Sequence record: PZ445535.1
DNA length: 44,793 nucleotides
Source: a phage
Reading direction: 5' to 3' (one strand)
The position numbers and the translations under genes are program-made. The notes beneath the pieces were generated by a model that was not told the DNA's origin, searched no databases, and worked only from the letters and a program-made list of their open reading frames with translations. Below are positions 4,456-44,173 of the stretch, piece by piece. The stretch's first letter is position 1, and the number at the start of each line of letters is the position of its first letter.

Positions 4456-5217
4456 TTAGCGCGGAATACCGCAAATCTCGTTTAGTGTTTTCACGTCAAG
4501 CGCTACTGCCGTTGACTTTTTCTCTTCCTGCGGGATGAACTGTTTAACTTCGGGCCATGCCTTAATAAGTTTGGTGTCTGTGGTGTATTTATTCAATGTT
4601 CCCATAACCGACAATTTAAACTCATCATATTTTGCACGTAAAGCCCGGCGTGCTTTGTCGTTCTTATCCAGACGTTTGCAAAACTCATGATCTGCCGGGT
4701 AATCTGCACGACCCCGCGGCATGTAGATCGGCACTTGCTCGCCTTCCTCGTTGAGTTCCACCAGCGCCGCAAGTAGCGCCGTCGCAAACCCCGGTACGAT
4801 TTCGCCAATATCAGGGGCCATCATGTTATTGAATTTATCCTCCCAGTACCCGCGATGGCAACGCCAGCTATAGTTATCGCCACTCAATGACAGTGTGCGA
4901 ATATTCCCGCCCATGTTGACTTCGAACGTTGCGTCATATACAGACCCGATGCCGTGGGGCATGTCTTTGTTATGGCTGAAGGTAGCGCGGCTGGCGTACA
5001 CGCTTATGCTAAACATATTGTTGTATGCGTCTTGAAAGCTGCGCATCATTTTCTGCAAACCGACGAAATTGGTAACACCTTCCGGCATCTGATCCATGGT
5101 GATAGCCATAGCAAGGTCGCGCGATTCGGCCATTATCTTTTTGGCCTGCTTCGTGATTTCGTGGTCGGCCAGGATGTTAGCCAGAATCTGCTTTTTAATG
5201 TCTTTGGTCAGTCTCAT
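4456..5217 (-). CDS. hypothetical protein (reverse-oriented moron in head module)
   Basis: 253 aa (MRLTKD...); RBS GAGGAA 6 nt upstream of ATG at 5217; own sigma70-like promoter; convergent terminator shared with Rz1; no motif recognised. Confidence 0.6.
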   Translation of the reverse strand: MRLTKDIKKQILANILADHEITKQAKKIMAESRDLAMAITMDQMPEGVTNFVGLQKMMRSFQDAYNNMFSISVYASRATFSHNKDMPHGIGSVYDATFEVNMGGNIRTLSLSGDNYSWRCHRGYWEDKFNNMMAPDIGEIVPGFATALLAALVELNEEGEQVPIYMPRGRADYPADHEFCKRLDKNDKARRALRAKYDEFKLSVMGTLNKYTTDTKLIKAWPEVKQFIPQEEKKSTAVALDVKTLNEICGIPR

Positions 5218-5247
5218 CGTCATTTCCTCATTGGTTGGTGTGCAACC

Positions 5248-5276
5248 AATATATTGCAACCAACCCCCGTATGCAA
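5248..5276 (-). promoter_or_regulatory. sigma70-like promoter for moron gene (TTGCAT-N17-TATATT)
   Basis: Minus strand reads TTGCAT acgggggttggttgcaa TATATT ggttgcacacc...GAGGAA; contains ATTGGTTGCA motif. Confidence 0.45.
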
Positions 5277-5283
5277 GCAAATT

Positions 5284-5311
5284 TTGCGATTATTTTTATC
5301 ACTGATAATAT
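5284..5311 (+). promoter_or_regulatory. sigma70-like promoter for scaffold/capsid operon (TTGCGA-N16-TAATAT)
   Basis: TTGCGA at 5284-5289, TAATAT at 5306-5311, about 55 nt upstream of scaffold ATG. Confidence 0.4.
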
Positions 5312-5366
5312 TAGGGGCGTGAAGTCGAGCGGGTGGCCCGTTCTGCCACAATCCCTGGGGGATGTT

Positions 5367-6071
5367 ATGAAACTGACTAAAGCAGAATATGACGCGTTGC
5401 CAGAAGGCATGAAGGCTTTATTTGTTGCCGACGGTGACGGGTACAAGGCGACTTTTATGACCGCCGAAGAAGTACAGGCCGAGATCAAAGGTCTGAAGGA
5501 TAACAATGCAAAGCTGGTAGGTGAGAAGAAGGCAGAAGCCGAACGCCGTGCCGAAGCGGAGCGCATCGCTAAAGAGAAAGAGGAAGCCGCCGCGCGCAAA
5601 AATGGCGACCTCGAAGCGATCGACAAGTCATGGAAGGACAAATTCGCTAAATACGATGCGGATACGCAGGGCAAAATCGAAGCCTACCGTAAACAGATTC
5701 ACGATCTTACCATCGGCAGCGCAGCTAAAGACCTGGCATCAAAGCTGTTCGGTAAGAATGCTGGCATTATGCAACGCCACGTTATGGACCGCCTTGCATT
5801 GGAAGACGGCGAAGACGGCAGCCTGAAGGTGCGCGTATTGAAGGACGGCAAACCGTCCGCACTGACTATGGAAGAACTAGAAAAAGAGTTCCGTAGTAAC
5901 GAAGATTTCGCATCCGTCCTGGCTGGTACTCCTGCCGGTGGTGCGCCGAGTAAGCCGACCCACGTCATCGACGATCCGAAATCTAAGATCCAGATGGGCC
6001 ATAGCTTCGGCATTACTGACCTTACCAAACAGGCCAGCGATATTATCGCCAAACTGGGCGACGACGAGTAA
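5367..6071 (+). CDS. scaffolding protein (putative)
   Basis: 235 aa; highly charged with AEAERRAEAERIAKEKEEAAARK coiled-coil segment; immediately upstream of major capsid gene. Confidence 0.5.
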   Translation: MKLTKAEYDALPEGMKALFVADGDGYKATFMTAEEVQAEIKGLKDNNAKLVGEKKAEAERRAEAERIAKEKEEAAARKNGDLEAIDKSWKDKFAKYDADTQGKIEAYRKQIHDLTIGSAAKDLASKLFGKNAGIMQRHVMDRLALEDGEDGSLKVRVLKDGKPSALTMEELEKEFRSNEDFASVLAGTPAGGAPSKPTHVIDDPKSKIQMGHSFGITDLTKQASDIIAKLGDDE

Positions 6072-10862: not shown

Positions 10863-11190
10863 GTATCGGGACAAGCGGGACGTCCCGTTTTTGTCCCACC
10901 CATCCCGCCACACCGAAAACTGCATACCTATTCAGAAATACTGCATAAAACCAAAACGGGACAAAAACGGGACAAGCGGGACGTCCCGCCTCAAAAGTGC
11001 ATACCTATGCAATTTTCGTGCATAAAACAAACGGGACAAAAACGGGACAGATTCCGCGCGGGACAAAGCGGGACGTCCCGCCGTCCCAGTCAGTGCTGCC
11101 GCGGGTTTCAGCCGTTCGGGACAAGCGGGACAAAGCCCAGTCTTTCAGACTAGACGGGGGTCAATGGCCCCCCTCGTCTGAGACTGAATA
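10863..11190. repeat. iteron-rich element A (about 11 CGGGACA heptamers, three GGGACGTCCC palindromes, two ~78-bp tandem units, terminal G/C-rich inverted repeat)
   Basis: Non-coding 400-bp gap inside tail operon; heptamer CGGGACA at 10867, 10957, 10968, 11032, 11043, 11059, 11117, 11126 etc.; inverted repeat CAGTCTTTCAGACTAGACGGGGG...CCCCCCTCGTCTGAGACTG at 11138-11186. Confidence 0.8.
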
Positions 11191-11256
11191 AGGTTGGTTG
11201 CAAAATGACTGATACAATACAAACGGCAACTTGCATAAAAAGGGGGGGACTGCATA

Positions 11257-16671: not shown

Positions 16672-19600
16672 CTATCGTCTACTCCGTAACGGGCCATAAG
16701 GGTGGAGGCGGGAAACAGCACACCCCGCAGGAGACGCCTGATAGCCTGCACTCGCTGGCTAAAATCCGCATTCTGCTCGCACTGGGTGAAGGGGAATTTG
16801 AAGGCATCCCTTCGACAGCCGAGCTACGCAAGCGCGTCTACCTGGACGGCACGCCGATCATGAACGAGGATAACTCGGAAAACTTCCCTGGCGCACGCGT
16901 TGAATTTCGCCCCGGAACACAGCACCAGGATGTGATTCACGGATTTTCAGCCGTGGAAAGCGAGTCATCCGTAAACGTCAAACTGGAACAGGGGACGCCG
17001 TGGGTCCGTCAAATCACCGACACCAGTCTTGACGCGGTGCGCATTCGCATCGGTATTCCTGCGTTGTACACCAACGAGGAAAACGGCGATCTGGTGGGTG
17101 GGCGCATCGACTATAAAATCGTGGTGTACACCGACAACGCTGATCCGCGGGAGTTTAACTTCGCTGCCGTTGGTAAAACAATGTCGCTGTATGAGCGCGA
17201 CCACCGCATTGAATTACCGCCGAACGTTAACACTAGCTGGCGCGTCGAAGTGCACCGCATTACGCCCGACTCCACCTCGGCGAAAGTGGTAAACGATATT
17301 CGCGTGCAGTCAATCACTGAGATTGTCGACGCCCGTTTGCGCTACCCGCTAACTGCGTTGCTATTCGTCGAGTTCGACGCGAAGGCTTTCCAGAATATCC
17401 CGCGCGTGTCTATCAAGTGCAAAGGCCGCAAAGTGCTGGTCCCTAACAACTACGACCCGATCGCGCATACCTATAGCGGCGACTGGGATGGTACCTTCAA
17501 GCGTGCATGGACGGATAACCCGGCGTGGCACTGGTACGATATTTGTATTACGGAACGTTTCGGACTCGGTCGTCGCATCAAGCCGCAAATGCTAAACCGC
17601 TATGCGCTTTACCAGATCGCCCAGCGCTGCGATCAGAAGGTTAGCGACGGCAACGGCGGACAGGAAATCCGGTTTAAGAACGACATGTACATCCAGTCGC
17701 AGACCGACGCATGGACCGTACTGAAAGACTTAGCCGCCATCTTCGCCGGTATGACCTGGTGGGGCAACCAAATGCTGAATATTGTCAGTGACCAGCCGGT
17801 CGCTGCGGTTTCGCACACCATTACTAATGCCTCCGTTATAGATGGGCGATTCGATTATGCGTCTGGCAGCCAGAAGACCCGCTATTCAACCTTTGCGGTG
17901 GCATACGGCAATCCGGCTAACCATTACGACGACGCAATCGCTACGGGCCAGCGTGTGGAACTGGTGCGCCGCCACAAGATTAACCGCCTTGATATTACGG
18001 CGATCGGCTGTACGCGTGAATCAGAAGCGCAACGCCGCGGGCACTGGGCGCTCATCTCAAACCAGCTTGATCAGCAGGTGAGCTTCAAAGTCGGCATGGA
18101 AGGTCTGTTCTTCATCCCCGGAAGCGTGGTAGCTATCGCAGACACCAATATTTCTGGCGGTTTCGAAATCCGCGGCGGGCGCTTACTGGAAGACCCCGGA
18201 ACGCGCACGGTGCTTAACACCGACGAGGAAATTACATTCCGACCAGGTGATAAATTCCTGGTACGCACTGCGAACGGTAGTGTCGAGACTCGCACAATCT
18301 CAAGCGTAAACGGCAACAAGGTTACGCTATCAAGCGCACTTGACGCGGACCCGATCCCGTTCCAGCCGTTTTGCGTTGACGGTGATGATATTCAGGTGCA
18401 GAAGTTCCGCATCACCGATCTGGAGTATGACGACGCGACCAGCACCTTCTCGGTGCGCGGGATTGAGTACAACGACAGCAAGTATGATGCCGTTGATAAT
18501 GGCGCTCGTCTTGACCCGGGCATCTTTACGCAAATGCCGGACGGCGTGCTGAAGGGGCCGGAATCCGTGACCATTACCCCGTCGCAGATTTCAAGCCAGG
18601 GCCAGTTAATCACCAACGTGGATATTGTTTTCCCGCCGGTGAAAGATGCCGTTGTCTATGAAATCCAGTGGCGAAGGACCAGCCTTCAGAATATGGCGGT
18701 GCAGTGGGGTAACGACTGGGTAAACCTGCCTCGCACGCCGTCAAACGGTGCGCACATCCCTAACGTGTTTTCCGGTAACTACCAGGCGCGCGTCCGGGCA
18801 ATCGGTATGGGTGAAATCTCATCCCCGTGGGTGGAATCTGTCATCACGCCGATTGAAGGTCGTCTCGGCGGTCTGAATGCGCCAATCATTACGGCAGCAG
18901 TGTCCGGTCTGCATCAGATCTTGTGGAAGTGGAATCACAACAACGCCGCTACGGATATTTCATACACGGAATTGCAGGTACGCAAGCCGGGTACTGAAGA
19001 ATGGCACTTCCTCACCAACGTGCCGTATCCGGGCGCGGACTATGCGCAGACGTCGCTTGAGTTCGGGGTCTATCAGCAGTTGCGCGCACGCGTGTCTGAT
19101 AAAATCGGCAACCTGTCAGACTGGTCAGCGCCGTTTGAAGGCCAGGTGAGCGATAAAGTCGACGACTACATGAAGGGACTCGACGACGAGTTTTTGACTT
19201 CGGAAGACGGTAAGCACTTCCAGGAGCAGATCGACACGTTCCCGCAAGGCATCTATGAGTCAATGCTCACTGACGCGCAGCAGTTGTTTAACGCCCGCGC
19301 CGAGTACAAAGGGATTTACGCCGAGATCAAGGTGGCTTATAACGTCGCTGCCGACGCACACCAGGCCGTCGCGCAACTGGAAACACTGGTAGGCACTCGT
19401 ATTGACGACGCGGAAGCGGCGATCCACACGCTACAGACTGCACAGAGCACGCACGAACAGGCGTTTGCCCAGTACCAGCAAACTGTGTCAGCGAAGTTTG
19501 GCGAGCAGGAATCGGCGATTCAGCAGGTTCAGACGGCAACGAGTGACGTAGCCAGCGCACTGGCGACCTATAAAACACAGGTAGCCGCGCAGTTCGGGCA

Positions 19601-21109: not shown

Positions 21110-21334
21110 TTACCACTCCCGTGATTTAACTGATACTGTACCTGAGAAGTTACCATCTGCATCGGCGGACAAGCCAGTGTAGCGCATGTCAATGTCTCCG
21201 GTCGCGACCTTTTGCCCATCTACATAACGCAACATGCAGCTTCCAGCGACGTAGGTTACGCAATCACCGTTATGGCGCTCAACCGCACAACCGGACAGCA
21301 TAGCAACGACTAAAATACTTAATAAAGTTTTCAT
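21110..21334 (-). CDS. lipoprotein, putative superinfection-exclusion (Llp/Cor-like)
   Basis: 74 aa; signal peptide MKTLLSILVVAMLSGC with lipobox; RBS AAGGAG 8 nt upstream; own promoter; next to putative RBP. Confidence 0.5.
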   Translation of the reverse strand: MKTLLSILVVAMLSGCAVERHNGDCVTYVAGSCMLRYVDGQKVATGDIDMRYTGLSADADGNFSGTVSVKSREW

Positions 21335-23974: not shown

Positions 23975-24508
23975 TTATTTAAGTGCGTTAGTCACCAGTG
24001 TTTTTTCCATCTTGCGGAAGTCGTCCAGGGTCATCCGGATTTTAGACCCATCTTCGCCGTGCAACGTAACCAGTGGTTTAGTTTTCACTAAAACACCCTC
24101 CGGCAGCTTCCACGCTTCGACAGTTTTCTTCACTGCATCCTGGAAAGCGGTTGCAGCGATCTTGCCATCCAGCTTAACCGCTACGCCCTTCAGGCTGTCA
24201 AACTGTGCTGCCGTTGTGTCGATCTGGACCTCGTCGTGCACGGTGGCGTATGACTCACCCAGTAGAGCGGCATACGCTACCAGGTCGACGATGTTGTCTT
24301 CCCGGTGCTTGCGGTGCTGGCGTACCAGCTTCAGGCAAATCAAGAAGGTCCAGGCTTCTTGCTCGGTAAGGTCGCGACCGGTAAGCGCGTTAAACACGGC
24401 GGCAATTTGTTTAGCGATGCGTTCTTCTTTCGCGTTGCCATAGCCGTTTTCTTTTCCGCGCTGTTCCATAGTGGTGGCGGCGTTTTTGCAGTATTCGAAT
24501 GCTTTCAT
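23975..24508 (-). CDS. hypothetical protein
   Basis: 177 aa from ATG 24508 (MKAFEYC...); RBS AGGAG 7 nt upstream; sigma70-like promoter and 5' stem-loop upstream. Confidence 0.5.
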   Translation of the reverse strand: MKAFEYCKNAATTMEQRGKENGYGNAKEERIAKQIAAVFNALTGRDLTEQEAWTFLICLKLVRQHRKHREDNIVDLVAYAALLGESYATVHDEVQIDTTAAQFDSLKGVAVKLDGKIAATAFQDAVKKTVEAWKLPEGVLVKTKPLVTLHGEDGSKIRMTLDDFRKMEKTLVTNALK

Positions 24509-25725: not shown

Positions 25726-26176
25726 GCTGCGGGTCCAGTGCGTAAAGTGGGATCTGTTTGGCGCTTTCCCACAGGCGTTTAATTCTTTCCTGCTCGCCTT
25801 TACCCATCTGGCGCATGTCCGTACTATAGTTGCCGTTGGTGGTGTCACGCCACGCGATCAGCACAAGGTCTTTACGGTCGATCTTCGTTGTGCGGCCTTT
25901 CGGACGGACGTATTCTTCAGCACGTTTGCAATGCTCGCGCAGGGCATCGGCGGTTAGCCGGGTGAGCGATACGGATGTTGTGTACCCGGTGCGCTGCATA
26001 ATGGTGATCAGTTCGCCCAGCAGTTCGAAGCGTTCCGCCAGTTCCTTGCGGGCCTTCTCTTCGGCTTCATAGCTTGCCAGGTAGGTATTTGCCAACGCGG
26101 TAGCGCCGTCCGCTTTCTCGCGGGCTTCAAGACACTGTGCTACCCAGTACGCTTTTTCTTCTTGTAAAATTTTCAT
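25712..26176 (-). CDS. hypothetical protein
   Basis: 154 aa; RBS GGAG 8 nt upstream; TAATG overlap with upstream gene. Confidence 0.5.
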   Translation of the reverse strand: MKILQEEKAYWVAQCLEAREKADGATALANTYLASYEAEEKARKELAERFELLGELITIMQRTGYTTSVSLTRLTADALREHCKRAEEYVRPKGRTTKIDRKDLVLIAWRDTTNGNYSTDMRQMGKGEQERIKRLWESAKQIPLYALDPQHDGE

Positions 26177-26418
26177 TATTTAGTCTCCGTCATGCGAATC
26201 TCATTTTGTGGGATAAATTTGCCGTTCATCTCTACCCAGCAGGATCCGTGCCGCCACTGGGTGTTACGACCGGTTTGCTCCGCATACACAGTCACGCATT
26301 CGTACTTCTCGAAGTGATACGTGCAGGAGGAAGGCATAATGATGCAAAAAACCACTATTAGCACCATCCACACCCATAACCGCAAATCACCGTCGTAATC
26401 TAAAAAGAATCGTTTCAT
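26176..26418 (-). CDS. small membrane protein
   Basis: 80 aa; hydrophobic segment WVWMVLIVVFCIIM; RBS GAGGA 7 nt upstream; first gene after promoter at 26465-26493. Confidence 0.45.
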   Translation of the reverse strand: MKRFFLDYDGDLRLWVWMVLIVVFCIIMPSSCTYHFEKYECVTVYAEQTGRNTQWRHGSCWVEMNGKFIPQNEIRMTETK

Positions 26419-26435
26419 CGTCAAATCCTCATATT

Positions 26436-26498: not shown

Positions 26499-26822
26499 TT
26501 ATGCAAAGAAATTTGGATCGCTCATCACATCCACAAGATAAAGGTTGTTAAGGCGGTTGCCGTAGTGGCCTGGCGTGCGCTGACGGCACACAACAGCGTA
26601 GCCCGGTGGGATGGTATTTCCGGTTGCCAGAATCCACGCCACGCGCGCGCCGTTTAGTGATTTACCGTTGTATTCGATGCGAGTGCCACCATCGGCAGTG
26701 TTAAGGCTGCCAATCTTCTTACCAGTGGAATTGAGGCGGATAACGCCGGTCTGGCTATCGTAATTAAACAGTTGTTTGGTCAGTGCTACCGAAAAATCAA
26801 TTGGTTCAAAGATAGTGTTCAT
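26499..26822 (-). CDS. HNH_3-like domain protein (possibly degenerate)
   Basis: 107 aa; FNYDSQTGVIR...GKSLNGARVAWILATG...GY pattern resembles HNH/AP2-type N-terminal domains but the usual His residues are not evident; RBS GAGGA. Confidence 0.35.
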   Translation of the reverse strand: MNTIFEPIDFSVALTKQLFNYDSQTGVIRLNSTGKKIGSLNTADGGTRIEYNGKSLNGARVAWILATGNTIPPGYAVVCRQRTPGHYGNRLNNLYLVDVMSDPNFFA

Positions 26823-29221: not shown

Positions 29222-29395
29222 TCATTCGCGTTCTTCACGATAGCGGCGCTGCCGTTCTCGTTCGGCCTTGTTCCGGCACGATTTACACTGCGCGCGATAC
29301 CCATCCGGGCTACGTGCTGTTTTGCCAGTGTACTTATGAAATTGCGATAGCGGTTTAACACAGCCGCATTGGCTGCAACGTTTTTCTTCAATCAT
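29222..29395 (-). CDS. zinc-ribbon protein
   Basis: 57 aa from ATG 29395; CSQCGC...CKSC two CxxC pairs; basic C-terminus; RBS GAGG 8 nt upstream. Confidence 0.45.
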   Translation of the reverse strand: MIEEKRCSQCGCVKPLSQFHKYTGKTARSPDGYRAQCKSCRNKAERERQRRYREERE

Positions 29396-29425: not shown

Positions 29426-29454
29426 ACTATAACTTTATGCGACCAATTCCGCAA
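29426..29454 (-). promoter_or_regulatory. candidate promoter (TTGCGG-N17-TATAGT)
   Basis: Minus strand: attggTTGCGGaattggtcgcataaagtTATAGT; overlaps last codons of VRR-NUC gene. Confidence 0.3.
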
Positions 29455-29713
29455 CCAATAAATCCGCGTCGTGGATGTTGTCAATTACCCGAACATCAGC
29501 CCCGCGCTTAGCCATGCGCTCATGTTCCCGTACCTGGTGCGGCTTCGGCTTGCCTCCGGGGCGCTTCACTTCGACGAATACAATCTTGCCGTTGATGATG
29601 ATAATCAGGTCGGGAGCGCCTGCGCGCCCCTCCCATGCCATCTTGCGGCAGAATCCGCCGACCGCTTTTACCTTTTTCATCAGGTGACTTTGCACCTTGC
29701 CTTCAGGAGTCAT
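29435..29713 (-). CDS. VRR-NUC domain nuclease
   Basis: 92 aa; PDLIIIINGKIVFVEVKRPGG...Q..EH pattern typical of VRR-NUC PD-(D/E)xK; ATGA coupling with upstream ORF. Confidence 0.6.
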   Translation of the reverse strand: MTPEGKVQSHLMKKVKAVGGFCRKMAWEGRAGAPDLIIIINGKIVFVEVKRPGGKPKPHQVREHERMAKRGADVRVIDNIHDADLLVAELVA

Positions 29714-33193: not shown

Positions 33194-33257
33194 TTTCCAA
33201 TTCCTCAATTTGCATGTATCGGGGTTATTAGAAGCCACCCCGTCCGGCTTGGTTGCT

Positions 33258-33286
33258 AATTTACTTGGTTGCGTTTCCGCGGTCAA
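33258..33286 (-). promoter_or_regulatory. candidate promoter for SSB-like gene (TTGACC-N17-TAAATT)
   Basis: Minus strand: TTGACCgcggaaacgcaaccaagTAAATT; motif copies CGCAACCAAG / AGCAACCAAG. Confidence 0.35.
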
Positions 33287-36107: not shown

Positions 36108-36137
36108 ATAATAGATTGGTTGCAGTATGGGTGTCAA
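36108..36137 (-). promoter_or_regulatory. sigma70-like early promoter for minus-strand operon (TTGACA-N18-TATTAT)
   Basis: Minus strand: TTGACAcccatactgcaaccaatcTATTAT; about 40 nt upstream of acidic-protein RBS. Confidence 0.5.
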
Positions 36138-36253: not shown

Positions 36254-36282
36254 TTGACACCGGTTTAATTTGGGTGTAGTTT
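36254..36282 (+). promoter_or_regulatory. sigma70-like promoter for HTH/primase operon (TTGACA-N17-TAGTTT)
   Basis: TTGACA at 36254-36259, TAGTTT at 36277-36282; spacer holds inverted repeat ACACC...GGTGT. Confidence 0.45.
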
Positions 36283-36313
36283 CTTTGGTCATTAACCAAC
36301 AGGAGGCTGAATT

Positions 36314-36643
36314 ATGAATATCAACGAAGCAATTGAAGTGTTATCTAATGCAATCCGCGGCGAGTCTGGTAAATCCTGGTATTACACAAATGCGGTGGAT
36401 ACTCTGTTATTTGAAGTGTCCAGATTATCGCGTGCCGAGAAAGAGCTTACCGCCAAACTTGAATTGCTGAACGGTACGGCAGCGAGCAAGCTGCAAAAGC
36501 ATAACGAAGAAATGGAAGAATACAAAAAGCAGGTTATCAGACTGCGCGAAGAGGGTAAGTCCTGGGCGATGATTGCCGAGTTAACAGGCATTAACCAGAG
36601 CACGGTGCGATCCTGGGTACGCAATACTAAAACCGCTAAGTAA
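36314..36643 (+). CDS. helix-turn-helix DNA-binding protein (putative regulator)
   Basis: 109 aa; C-terminal HTH-like SWAMIAELTGINQSTVRSWV; RBS AGGAGG; first gene of divergent plus-strand operon. Confidence 0.55.
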   Translation: MNINEAIEVLSNAIRGESGKSWYYTNAVDTLLFEVSRLSRAEKELTAKLELLNGTAASKLQKHNEEMEEYKKQVIRLREEGKSWAMIAELTGINQSTVRSWVRNTKTAK

Positions 36644-38920: not shown

Positions 38921-39030
38921 AATTTGCGCGCATTGGTTGCCGATATGGGAATTCCCATATCGCTAAAAGATTAAATTCTGCGCGCATTGGTTGCCAGATT
39001 GAGCATTAAATCTATATCGCATTGGTTGCC
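38912..39030. repeat. three direct repeats containing GCGCATTGGTTGCC plus perfect 22-bp palindrome
   Basis: 30-bp repeats at 38912-38941 and 38966-38995 (54-bp period), partial third at 39018-39030; palindrome CGATATGGGAATTCCCATATCG at 38941-38962. Confidence 0.75.
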
Positions 39031-39068
39031 GTGTAGTGCTAAATAAGTGAATAGTTATGCAAAATAAG

Positions 39069-39240
39069 TGCATAAAACAAACGGGACAAAAACGGGACAA
39101 ACTACAAGCGGGACAAAACGGGACGTCCCGCCGTCCCCGTCAGGCGTGGTGCGGATTTGAGGCGAACGGGACAAGCGGGACAGACCACAGTCTTTCAGAC
39201 TAGACGGGGGGTATTGTCCCCCCTCCGTCTGAGACTGCAT
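39069..39240. repeat. iteron-rich element B (second copy of element A core)
   Basis: 32-mer GTGCATAAAACAAACGGGACAAAAACGGGACA identical to 11018-11049; GGGACGTCCCGCCGTCCC; CGGGACAAGCGGGACA; G6/C6 inverted repeat at 39188-39237. Confidence 0.8.
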
Positions 39241-39396
39241 AAAATCTCTGGTTGCATAATCAACGGCAGCATAGTGAAAATTGCGGCGGGGGTAGATCTC
39301 GGCAACCAATGCATGTTGGATAATGGAGAGTGAAAAATGCAGTTTGCAATTGCAACTCATAGCGATCAGCATTTCCATGCGCGTGATTGATATTGG

Positions 39397-39425
39397 TTGC
39401 ATTCAGCCTGGCACCTTGCTATATT
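39397..39425 (+). promoter_or_regulatory. sigma70-like promoter (TTGCAT-N17-TATATT) for early genes at 39454+
   Basis: attggTTGCATtcagcctggcaccttgcTATATTggttgcacaccaac; shares a 20-nt block with the promoter at 5248-5276. Confidence 0.5.
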
Positions 39426-39453
39426 GGTTGCACACCAACATGAGGACTGAACG

Positions 39454-39768: not shown

Positions 39769-40044
39769 ATGGCATGTAGACGCGCTAAATGGCTATCCTG
39801 GTATATCCCCCTGCATTGCATACGAATATGGGCACAGAATGCGATTGATGGCGATTCTGTGTTCTGGAGCTATCGGGATGACGTCAAGCCGCTGACGCAG
39901 ACCAAAATGCTGCACCAGTTCATGAACGAACACGGGCTACCGGTGAAAACATCATTGCAACCAATGGGGATTCGTATTACATTACGCCGGAAGCCCGCCG
40001 TTGAGCGGGTAGGCAAACACTGGAGACTGCGCAAATGTTCTTAG
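39769..40044 (+). CDS. hypothetical early protein
   Basis: 91 aa; RBS AAGGGG 5 nt upstream. Confidence 0.5.
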   Translation: MACRRAKWLSWYIPLHCIRIWAQNAIDGDSVFWSYRDDVKPLTQTKMLHQFMNEHGLPVKTSLQPMGIRITLRRKPAVERVGKHWRLRKCS

Positions 40045-41132: not shown

Positions 41133-41151
41133 TTATGCAGTCGTGATATAG

Positions 41152-41186
41152 TCCCCAGTGAGGTTTAATCTTACTGGGGCTTTTTT
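41152..41186 (+). terminator. intrinsic terminator before holin gene
   Basis: CCCCAGTGAGG-TTTAAT-CTTACTGGGG hairpin followed by TTTTTT, then ATG of holin. Confidence 0.6.
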
Positions 41187-42680: not shown

Positions 42681-42710
42681 TTGACTTGCAACCAATTAAT
42701 ATCTCATACT
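42681..42710 (+). promoter_or_regulatory. candidate promoter (TTGACT-N18-CATACT) with TGCAACCAAT motif
   Basis: TTGACTtgcaaccaattaatatctCATACT directly after terminator; upstream of HTH-phosphoesterase gene. Confidence 0.3.
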
Positions 42711-44148: not shown

Positions 44149-44173
44149 TGTCTGCAATTCTCCCTGATATAAT
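44145..44173 (+). promoter_or_regulatory. extended -10 promoter (TGaTATAAT) for terS-terL operon
   Basis: Perfect TATAAT at 44168-44173 preceded by TG at 44165-44166; weak -35 TTTGTG; 6-bp stem-loop in leader at 44180-44196. Confidence 0.5.

Follow-up and report, generated by a model that had tools for sequence, protein, structure and literature searches.

The operators recognized by P1 C1 and the "stoperators" of mycobacteriophage L5 gp71 are asymmetric sites of 13-17 bp that are scattered genome-wide and allow one protein to control many units. Both phages are temperate and maintain lysogeny in this way, and the L5 stoperators are strictly oriented and lie mostly in transcribed regions. The T4 MotA boxes and the lambda CII sites are activator sites with a fixed position and orientation and a poor -35 element; CII sites contain TTGC direct repeats. 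In the P2 family (P2, W-phi, and P2 Hy dis), the operators of the C repressors are direct repeats that differ between close relatives in sequence, position, and spacing (PMC1904268). In the lytic mycobacteriophage D29, a small oligomerizing helix-turn-helix (HTH) protein, Gp36, is reported to bind direct repeats and to repress early and late genes (PMC12266134). In Kagunavirus (Guernseyvirinae), "phage promoters" of the form tgAATAGTa-ccTATTat-T were detected by PHIRE and attributed by the authors to a phage RNA polymerase (PMC9825357). Here we describe a 10-bp word, ATTGGTTGCA, in the essentially complete genome of a phage of the Dhillonvirus type, a virulent E. coli siphophage (record PZ445535.1; the whole stretch of 44,793 bp is the window referred to below). 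We give an even chance to the reading that this word is a multi-copy operator of early and middle promoters for a sequence-specific regulator. Dispersed phage operators are a known kind of element, and the ATTGGTTGCA family would be a new one: we found no published description of ATTGGTTGCA or of Dhillonvirus promoter organization in the literature, nor anything published on the timing of gene expression in Dhillonviruses via host RNA polymerase alone. The record of Dhillonvirus HK578 annotates three generic promoters only.

In an unbiased k-mer scan with an order-2 Markov background, ATTGGTTGCA is the top-ranked 10-mer of the genome. It has 12 exact copies on the two strands, compared with 0.11 expected from dinucleotide shuffles (none of 100 shuffles reached 12), and 21 copies with at most one mismatch (3.15 expected). 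Non-coding DNA, which makes up ~7% of the genome (3.1 kb), contains ten of the exact copies, with 0.01 expected, and 16 of those with at most one mismatch, with 0.19 expected; 19-20 of 25 motif-like copies are located outside coding sequence or within a gene's last codons. A first-pass annotation of this DNA had noted the recurrent motif, and the observation holds against shuffled sequence. The sites that it listed exist, with coordinates off by one base at most (11193-11202 for the 11.19-kb site, and 29438-29447 and 29450-29459, with one mismatch each, for the 29.4-kb sites), but the list missed the exact copy at 39956-39965 and the degenerate copies at 5230-5239 and 5272-5281. The copy at 39956-39965 is intragenic, without promoter context, and may be a chance occurrence or silent.

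The motif is a 10-bp asymmetric unit, a-TTGGTTGC-a, with the 8-mer TTGGTTGC as its core. In the final motif matrix, which was seeded on this core (a matrix seeded on GGTTGC picked up too much background and was dropped), the only informative positions beyond the core are 0, where A is preferred over G, and 9, where A is preferred over C; the sequence flanking the 10-mer carries no information. The 10-mer had been presented as half of a palindrome, but the full 16-bp palindrome, ATTGGTTGCAACCAAT, does not occur in any of the nine Dhillonvirus genomes that we compared (this phage and eight others, among them the divergent HK578 and A144, the record of which is 35 kb). Because the palindrome never occurs and the flanks are uninformative, we consider the unit asymmetric. 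Start-to-start distances of adjacent copies are 12, 12, 14, 16, 17, 17, 17, 31, 35, and 54 bp and show no helical phasing, in keeping with units that are bound independently.

The -35 and -10 elements were assigned site by site, with verified coordinates, and ten predicted sigma70-type promoters show a -35-like element, a spacer of 16-18 bp, and a -10-like element and point into a gene (Table 1). All promoter-associated copies lie between positions -40 and +12, that is, inside the RNA polymerase footprint, and most fall into one of three slots. In slot A (-40 to -31), the TTGCA of the motif and the base that follows it form the -35 element (TTGCAA, TTGCAT, or TTGCGG), 17 bp from TATATT or TATAGT; this is the case at P2, P4, P5, and P9, at P1 with a degenerate copy, and at P3 with a reverse copy. 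Slot B (-23 to -13; P1, P2, P3, P4, P6, and P7) is in the spacer, where forward copies end 1 nt before the -10 element and reverse copies abut it, and slot C (-9 to +4; P1, P9, and P6) covers the -10 element and the start site. Copies in reverse orientation are found at P3, P6, P7, and P10. Promoters whose -35 element is not derived from the motif have a near-consensus one instead (TTGACC, TTGACA, or TTGACT); therefore, they would need no activator. The same registers are seen throughout the nine genomes (210 copies): relative to forward copies, 28 hexamers resembling a -10 element are at +28, 22 at +11, and 46 at -3, and relative to reverse copies, 29 are at +9 to +11, with 0.56 expected per offset, which amounts to a 40- to 80-fold enrichment over background. 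As in repressor operators, a specific repeat overlaps the core promoter elements, within -40 to +12 at every promoter copy, and is conserved across the genus.

The architecture initially taken to be that of most sites, TTGCA(A/T) as a -35 element 17 bp from TATATT with a second copy in the spacer, is found at 5-6 of ~11 promoters (P1-P5 and P9); at the others, TTGAC(A/C/T) is the -35 element, and the motif is confined to the spacer or the start site. This mixture bears on the alternative that the word is a positive promoter element, either an extended -35 element or the site of a class-II-type activator or sigma-appropriation factor, that gives strength or phage specificity. In those 5-6 promoters, the motif indeed supplies a sub-optimal -35 element (TTGCAA or TTGCAT, with 3-4 of 6 positions matching TTGACA) exactly 17 bp from the -10 element, the copies with a clear promoter context in Klebsiella phage VLCpiS11a also provide the -35 element (TGTTGGTTGCAA-17-TATAGT), and the HTH of a 109-aa protein encoded by the phage is of the sigma-70 region-4 type. 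However, copies in the spacer, over the -10 element and start site, or in reverse orientation cannot be read as an extension of the -35 element, P6, P7, and P10 already have a consensus -35 element, scans of the small proteins against Pfam gave no match of the MotA or AsiA type, and the spacing of the direct repeats is unlike that of lambda CII sites (TTGC-N6-TTGC). We therefore consider a positive element quite unlikely. Such an element would amount to the family-specific promoter signature that had also been put forward; if read by RNA polymerase alone, a signature of this kind leaves the reverse copies and the start-site copies unexplained.

Of the described systems, the sites of the P2-family C repressors, of P1 C1 and L5 gp71, and of D29 Gp36 are functionally nearest to the motif. 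It resembles the P1 C1 and L5 gp71 sites in being an asymmetric single unit with many dispersed copies, but unlike L5 stoperators, its copies are orientation-free and confined to promoter cores. With the P2-family C operators, it shares short direct repeats in the core of an early promoter and the same plasticity; those, however, belong to temperate phages with an identified repressor and a single operator at one promoter (Pe), whereas here the unit is present at ~ten promoters of a virulent phage, and inverted copies occur as well. D29 Gp36 differs in being of the MerR type and in having GC-rich repeats, and its abstract mentions no genome-wide promoter-embedded set. The Kagunavirus word is likewise lineage-specific and located at predicted promoters (~seven repeats), in a related lineage with no RNA polymerase of its own, but it has another sequence and looks palindromic. 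Like MotA boxes and CII sites, the motif is a phage-specific word that overlaps or replaces the -35 element of a promoter class; unlike them, it also occupies the spacer and the start site, in either orientation, at promoters that look complete. Thus, it does not have the fixed position and orientation of T4 MotA boxes, nor does it form the pairs of TTGC tetramers, 10 bp apart and on either side of a poor -35 element, that make up CII sites, as the unit is 10 bp long, copies are 12-54 bp apart, and they also occupy the spacer and start site.

Table 1. Predicted promoters, motif copies, and surrounding modules of the window
Feature	Position	Strand	Elements and motif copies	Context
P1	5230..5281	-	-35 TTGCAT 5276-5271; 17-bp spacer; -10 TATATT 5253-5248; degenerate copy TTTGCTTGCA 5281-5272 (-40..-31); GTTGGTTGCA 5264-5255 (-23..-14); ATTGGTTGCA 5250-5241 (-9..+1); degenerate inverted copy 5239-5230	Nmad5-domain gene (~4456-5220, -)
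P2	21364..21397	-	ATTGGTTGCA 21397-21388 provides -35 TTGCAA; 17-bp spacer; -10 TATATT 21369-21364; second copy 21380-21371, ending 1 nt short of -10	Cor-like lipoprotein gene (21110-21334, -)
P3	24555..24583	-	TTGCAACCAAT-AA-TGCAACCAAT-TATATT on the minus strand; two reverse copies, at -35 and abutting -10	Gene starting near 24470 (-)
P4	26465..26498	-	ATTGGTTGCA 26498-26489 provides -35 TTGCAT; 17-bp spacer; -10 TATATT 26470-26465; spacer copy 26481-26472	Gene 26176-26424 (-)
P5	29426..29459	-	ATTGGTTGCG 29459-29450 provides -35 TTGCGG; ATTGGTCGCA 29447-29438 (-28..-19); -10 TATAGT 29431-29426	Lar-like gene (29222-29395, -); in last codons of VRR-NUC gene
P6	33248..33286	-	-35 TTGACC 33286-33281; 17-bp spacer; -10 TAAATT 33263-33258; reverse copies CGCAACCAAG 33273-33264 (abutting -10) and AGCAACCAAG 33257-33248 (-6..+4); both copies (33248-33257 and 33264-33273) degenerate, given as CTTGGTTGCT and CTTGGTTGCG	gp2.5-like ssDNA-binding protein gene
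P7 ("P_L", predicted leftward early promoter)	36108..36137	-	-35 TTGACA 36137-36132; 18-bp spacer; -10 TATTAT 36113-36108; reverse copy TGCAACCAAT 36124-36115 in spacer (-23..-14)	Replication and modification operon
P8 ("P_R")	36254..36299 (promoter 36254-36282)	+	TTGACA-17-TAGTTT; no full motif; palindrome TTGGTCATTAACCAA 36285-36299	109-aa HTH gene and primase-helicase gene
P9	39392..39432	+	ATTGGTTGCA 39392-39401 provides -35 TTGCAT; 17-bp spacer; -10 TATATT 39420-39425; second copy 39423-39432 (-9..+1)	Rightward genes from 39454
P10	42681..42710	+	-35 TTGACT; 18-bp spacer; -10 CATACT; reverse copy TGCAACCAAT 42687-42696 abutting -35 (-30..-21)	Upstream of metallophosphoesterase/exonuclease gene (42763)
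Single copy	11193..11202	+	GTTGGTTGCA, at ~-32..-23 of the extended -10 promoter at 11210-11218	Upstream of tape-measure gene
Three same-orientation copies	38932..39030 (starts 38932, 38986, 39021)	+	ATTGGTTGCC; no clear promoter seen	Right after primase-helicase stop codon; flank CGGGACA iteron array
Degenerate copy	39247			Not conserved
Single copy	39301..39310	-	ATTGGTTGCC; no convincing promoter	Conserved; non-coding, between iterons and P9
Exact intragenic copy	39956-39965	-		Inside hypothetical gene 39769-40044
Extended -10	5303-5311		TGATAATAT	Upstream of scaffold gene
Extended -10	11210-11218		TGATACAAT	Upstream of tape-measure gene
Extended -10	41144-41152		TGATATAGT	Upstream of holin gene
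Extended -10	44165-44173		TGATATAAT	Upstream of small terminase gene
Structural module	1-20 kb	rightward
Replication and DNA-modification module	36.1-23.3 kb	leftward
Operon of 109-aa HTH protein and 755-aa primase-helicase	36.3-38.9 kb	rightward
Non-coding region, 533 bp	38,921-39,453
Small genes, lysis genes, exonuclease, small terminase	Beyond 38,921-39,453	rightward

The gene map was curated by hand, with phage Ioannina and SSL-2009a as annotation guides, and some start codons are approximate. A reading of the copy at 36115 as a plus-strand -35 element (TTGCAG-16-TAATTT) was replaced, because the leftward promoter P7 fits better.

There are at least 155 Dhillonvirus records, and this phage is ~90% identical to LM40P1 and 86% identical to Ioannina. 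The core TTGGTTGC occurs 19-22 times in each complete Dhillonvirus genome sampled, including HK578, and 15 times in A144, whereas ~1.3 occurrences are expected. A comparison with the promoters of related phages, suggested when the motif was first noted, bore the motif out: in alignments of orthologous promoters, copies are conserved in the eight other Dhillonviruses, while the intervening bases drift. Mean identity in the copies versus other non-coding columns is 0.95 versus 0.86 at P1, 0.92 versus 0.74 at P4, 0.99 versus 0.85 at P6, 1.00 versus 0.85 at P7, and 0.93 versus 0.76 in the 38.9-39.5-kb region. Every P1 copy is kept in eight genomes, while the 7-8 nt that separate the -35 element from the spacer copy vary; both P4 copies are kept in all genomes but A144, which lacks the first, and the 7 nt in between vary; the P6 copies are near-invariant in the nine genomes (one G/A change in two of them), while upstream spacer bases vary. 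P7 is invariant in all nine genomes, the P2 -35 copy is kept in all nine, P9 is kept in all aligned genomes, and the arrangement at P5 has an orthologous counterpart in VLCpiS11a. Turnover has occurred, but it spared the word. The same two P3 slots hold a reverse and a forward copy in six aligned relatives, two forward copies in LM40P1, and two reverse copies here; the P2 spacer copy is restricted to the clade of this phage; P10 relatives have an extra reverse copy, TGCGACCAAT, that overlaps the -10 element; and the copy at 11193-11202 is present only in this genome, LM40P1, and Ioannina, whereas other Dhillonviruses read GGTTTGTTTT there. The orientation turnover within the same P3 slots argues for a reader other than RNA polymerase. 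Taken together, the alignments point to selection that acts on the 10-mer itself, independently of its orientation and limited to the promoter core.

The same alignments make it highly improbable, in our view, that the repeats have no function of their own and only reflect the duplication of promoter cassettes with a common origin. P1 and P9 do have a longer paralogous stretch in common (TATATTGGTTGCACACCAAC and the leader; the -10 element, start-site copy, and leader of P9 are all paralogous to those of P1), and two VLCpiS11a promoters share ~40 bp. Elsewhere, however, the 10-mer alone is shared and its flanks are uninformative, both orientations are used, one orthologous promoter has switched orientation while keeping the word, and the copies are more conserved than neighboring non-coding bases.

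Not all predicted promoters carry the motif. Four extended -10 promoters, of the form TGATAnnAT or TGATAnAGT, precede the small terminase, scaffold, tape-measure, and holin genes. Of the four extended -10 words, all but TGATATAAT recur in nearly all eight relatives; TGATATAAT is found in the clade of this phage only. Three of these promoters have no motif anywhere in the genus, and at the tape-measure promoter a copy is present in the clade of this phage alone. They are a candidate late class, distinct from the motif-bearing promoters, and the motif would accordingly mark one promoter class, early and middle. P8 also has no full motif; downstream of it lies the palindrome TTGGTCATTAACCAA, which has the TTGGT part of the motif in common. 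The P8 promoter is kept in all genomes, and the palindrome is kept in all but HK578. Short TTGGT...ACCAA inverted repeats are present in the leaders of P8 (36285-36299), P1 (5230-5250), and P9 (39426-39441) and could be mRNA 5'-terminal stem-loops, variant operators, or both. At P4 (26430-26465, minus strand) and at the holin promoter (41153-41185, plus strand), a strong hairpin with a T-run starts directly after the -10 element, so that the predicted start site belongs to the 5' arm of the terminator; among relatives, compensatory changes are seen in the P4 hairpin. These hairpins may terminate upstream transcripts, with the local promoter's own transcripts escaping them. Between the divergent P7 and P8 (36138-36190), a run of 11 A residues leads into the hairpin ATCCCCGAAGCAAAACGCAACGGGGAT, which is conserved and has undergone compensatory changes in relatives; on the minus strand, it is terminator-like and upstream of the leftward promoter.

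The first-pass annotation had noted that the motif sits where an operator would be. Its placement, the use of both orientations, the P3 flip, and the absence of the motif from predicted late promoters agree with this suggestion, and binding, the direction of the effect (repression), and its timing are what we infer from them. In the operator reading, the regulator would bind each asymmetric 10-mer (ATTGGTTGCA, core TTGGTTGC) as a separate unit; at ~ten sigma70-type promoters that look complete in other respects, the RNA polymerase footprint (-40 to +12) encloses one to three such units. The predicted targets would include the genes for replication, DNA modification, the ssDNA-binding protein, the Nmad5-domain protein, and the Cor-like lipoprotein, as well as the rightward genes from 39454. 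As it accumulates, the regulator would compete with RNA polymerase at all motif promoters together, and early transcription would be throttled or shut off, while the motif-free extended -10 promoters, the predicted late ones, would remain free. Steric repression is the simplest mechanism, because the promoters look complete without the motif, copies are in the spacer or at the start site, and orientation is irrelevant.

Several observations weigh against this reading. The non-coding region at 38.9-39.4 kb contains six to seven copies beside origin-like iterons and with no clear promoter; hence, transcription may not be the only, or the primary, function of the motif. The promoter and late-class assignments are themselves predictions from sequence. 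A generic sigma70 promoter scan, which covered the genome outside the 20-40-kb stretch, found no excess of sites (in the structural module, sigma70-like promoters are not above chance), and it missed most motif promoters, because TTGCAT matches TTGACA at only three of six positions. The copies at -40 to -31 could just as well act positively, and a dual role, positive there and negative elsewhere, could also be envisaged. Finally, no candidate reader appears to track the motif cleanly. The 109-aa protein, the only recognizable HTH protein when the small proteins were scanned against Pfam, PHROGs, and NCBIfam, is not encoded by two other phages in which the motif is enriched, and vB_STM-ZS is a phage with a full-length primase-helicase homolog (42% identity C-terminally) in which the motif is not enriched.

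The two other motif-bearing phages are VLCpiS11a (Guernseyvirinae), in which TGTTGGTTGC is the top word and the core has 13 copies (1.4 expected), several of them embedded in promoters with the same geometry (TTGCAA-17-TATAGT at 19002 and 34813), and Serratia phage Otaku, with 12 core copies (1.7 expected), most of which are intragenic. Both lack the 109-aa protein and encode an unrelated Cro-like HTH protein at its genome position; its absence makes the 109-aa protein a weaker candidate than it seemed at first sight and leaves the link between the motif and "the HTH proteins" that had been implied earlier unsupported. The 109-aa protein (36314-36643) matches Pfam Sigma70_r4_2 (E = 4e-7; 29.9 bits, cut-off 25.7) and HTH_23. 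Across the genus, its C-terminal HTH is nearly invariant and its first 45 residues are hypervariable, with a longer, divergent N-terminus in HK578; the predicted structure (pLDDT 85) has a continuous helix of ~59 residues followed by a three-helix HTH, for which Foldseek returned generic HTH matches only (E ~1). All of its homologs are within Dhillonvirus-like contigs, and its GenBank labels vary ("transposase," "resolvase," "Gam"). When viral contigs were scanned for motif copies in tandem pairs, 120 loci came up, of which 24 were Dhillonvirus-like and the rest were mostly unrelated coding tandem repeats; none of the non-Dhillonvirus loci encodes the 109-aa protein. One unrelated contig (IMG/VR 3300038463_000167, locus L011, 2750-3180) has 12 copies of cTAATTGGTTGCATCC in ~450 bp, an iteron-like array that apparently shares the core by coincidence. 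A word considered as a Jerseyvirus analog of the motif, GTTGGCCGCG, was rejected, as its contexts look coding.

What these lineages do share is the full-length primase-helicase (755 aa here), and this leads to the alternative that TTGGTTGC is primarily the site of this protein as a replication initiator with a winged-helix-like C-terminal region, that the cluster directly behind its gene is part of an origin, and that the promoter copies are secondary, with the initiator repressing early promoters or coupling transcription to replication. DnaA, plasmid Rep proteins, and SV40 large T antigen are initiators that also repress promoters. The full-length primase-helicase is common to the motif-bearing lineages (48-49% identity), whereas the motif-less Jerseyvirus has the helicase core only, and clusters of at least three core copies are located at or just after its 3' end in all three motif-bearing lineages (38932-39030 here, 26646-26771 in Otaku, and 4794-5385 in VLCpiS11a). 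The trio at 38932-39030 varies between two and three copies among relatives, in non-coding DNA with indels that are not multiples of three. The iterons that adjoin these clusters are lineage-specific (CGGGACA in Dhillonvirus and ACTCGCAA in VLCpiS11a), as is the small HTH protein encoded upstream (sigma-region-4-like in Dhillonvirus, Cro-like in the other two), while TTGGTTGC is constant. Since the iterons and the small HTH protein change together, this protein is a better candidate for reading the iterons, and since TTGGTTGC does not change, a conserved protein, possibly the primase-helicase, is a better candidate for the motif. A C-terminal fragment of the primase-helicase is predicted to contain a helix-helix-helix-hairpin unit (pLDDT 64-82), and winged-helix proteins predominate among the weak fold matches of the fragment. 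On the other hand, none of these matches is significant, the overall model is poor (pLDDT 45), and PDB, NCBIfam, and Pfam searches with the C-terminal region were empty, so that no DNA-binding domain is recognizable by sequence; with vB_STM-ZS included, the primase-helicase co-occurs with the motif in three of the four lineages that have the full-length protein, among only five lineages sampled. Moreover, most copies are scattered in promoter cores rather than arrayed: unlike origin iterons, they extend over 38 kb, in both orientations and at irregular distances of 12-54 bp, and only the trio at 38932-39030 is array-like, whereas the CGGGACA family does fit the definition of iterons. On balance, we consider a primarily replicative role unlikely.

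The CGGGACA repeats belong to two paralogous non-coding modules, at 10867-11190, between the tail-chaperone and tape-measure genes, and at 39082-39237, after the primase-helicase gene. They contain CGGGACA(A) arrays (eight and five copies, together 13 of the 14 in the genome) and GGGACGTCCC palindromes, and both end in the same long hairpin, CAGTCTTTCAGACTAGACGGGGG...CCCCCTCGTCTGAGACTG. They resemble an origin and a second cis site, in the manner of P4 ori and crr. Another over-represented word, the octamer ACGGCAGC (family AACGGCA[GA]C), has 32 copies (e.g., at 879, 3209, 3856, 9448, and 38250), with 3.4 expected; nearly all are intragenic, 24 are on the plus strand whatever the orientation of the gene, and the octamer is among the top words in Otaku, VLCpiS11a, and Jerseyvirus as well.

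A core that is identical in Escherichia, Klebsiella, and Serratia phages with different small HTH proteins might also be expected if the motif recruited a conserved DNA-binding protein of Enterobacterales. CytR of E. coli binds octamers resembling GTTGCATT, direct or inverted and with flexible spacing, with flanking CRP sites, and several copies of the motif read GGTTGCATT or GGTTGCAAT. However, only GTTGCA is in common with the CytR octamer; positions 11-12 are not conserved, ATTGG, which is superfluous for CytR, is invariant, and there are no CRP-type sites beside the copies. A BLAST search with the P4 promoter found no match, and thus no related promoter, in 5,426 E. coli genomes, and two related enterobacterial phages do not have the motif. 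In species-representative bacterial genomes, ATTGGTTGCANTATANT gave scattered single matches in unrelated taxa, at about the chance level for 15 specified bases in 596 Gb. Recruitment of a host protein as the purpose of the motif is therefore improbable.

Returning to the operator reading, the regulator is probably phage-encoded. The C-terminal region of the primase-helicase is the leading, though tentative, candidate; the 109-aa HTH protein is an unlikely one, another conserved small protein is as unlikely or slightly more so, and a host factor is more unlikely still, with part of the probability left unassigned. A more specific version, in which the primase-helicase reads TTGGTTGC via a C-terminal winged-helix domain and the initiator doubles as a global repressor of early promoters, is in our opinion rather unlikely. 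In that version, an ancestral origin-flanking site, common to some Guernseyvirinae, would have been recruited into ~ten promoter cores, and reading the lineage-specific iterons (CGGGACA or ACTCGCAA) would fall to the small HTH protein, exchangeable between lineages, whose gene lies directly upstream.

In phage collections and among therapy candidates, Dhillonviruses rank with the most common E. coli siphophages. The motif defines a concrete, testable regulon for them: one 10-bp word, ~ten promoters with defined copy positions, and a contrasting motif-free extended -10 set. The 10-mer could be used for DNA-affinity capture of the regulator, and the promoters would provide a compact set of co-regulated parts. 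The sharing of the word with some Guernseyvirinae, despite their different iterons and small HTH proteins, suggests a control layer that is older, conserved, and tied to the replication module.

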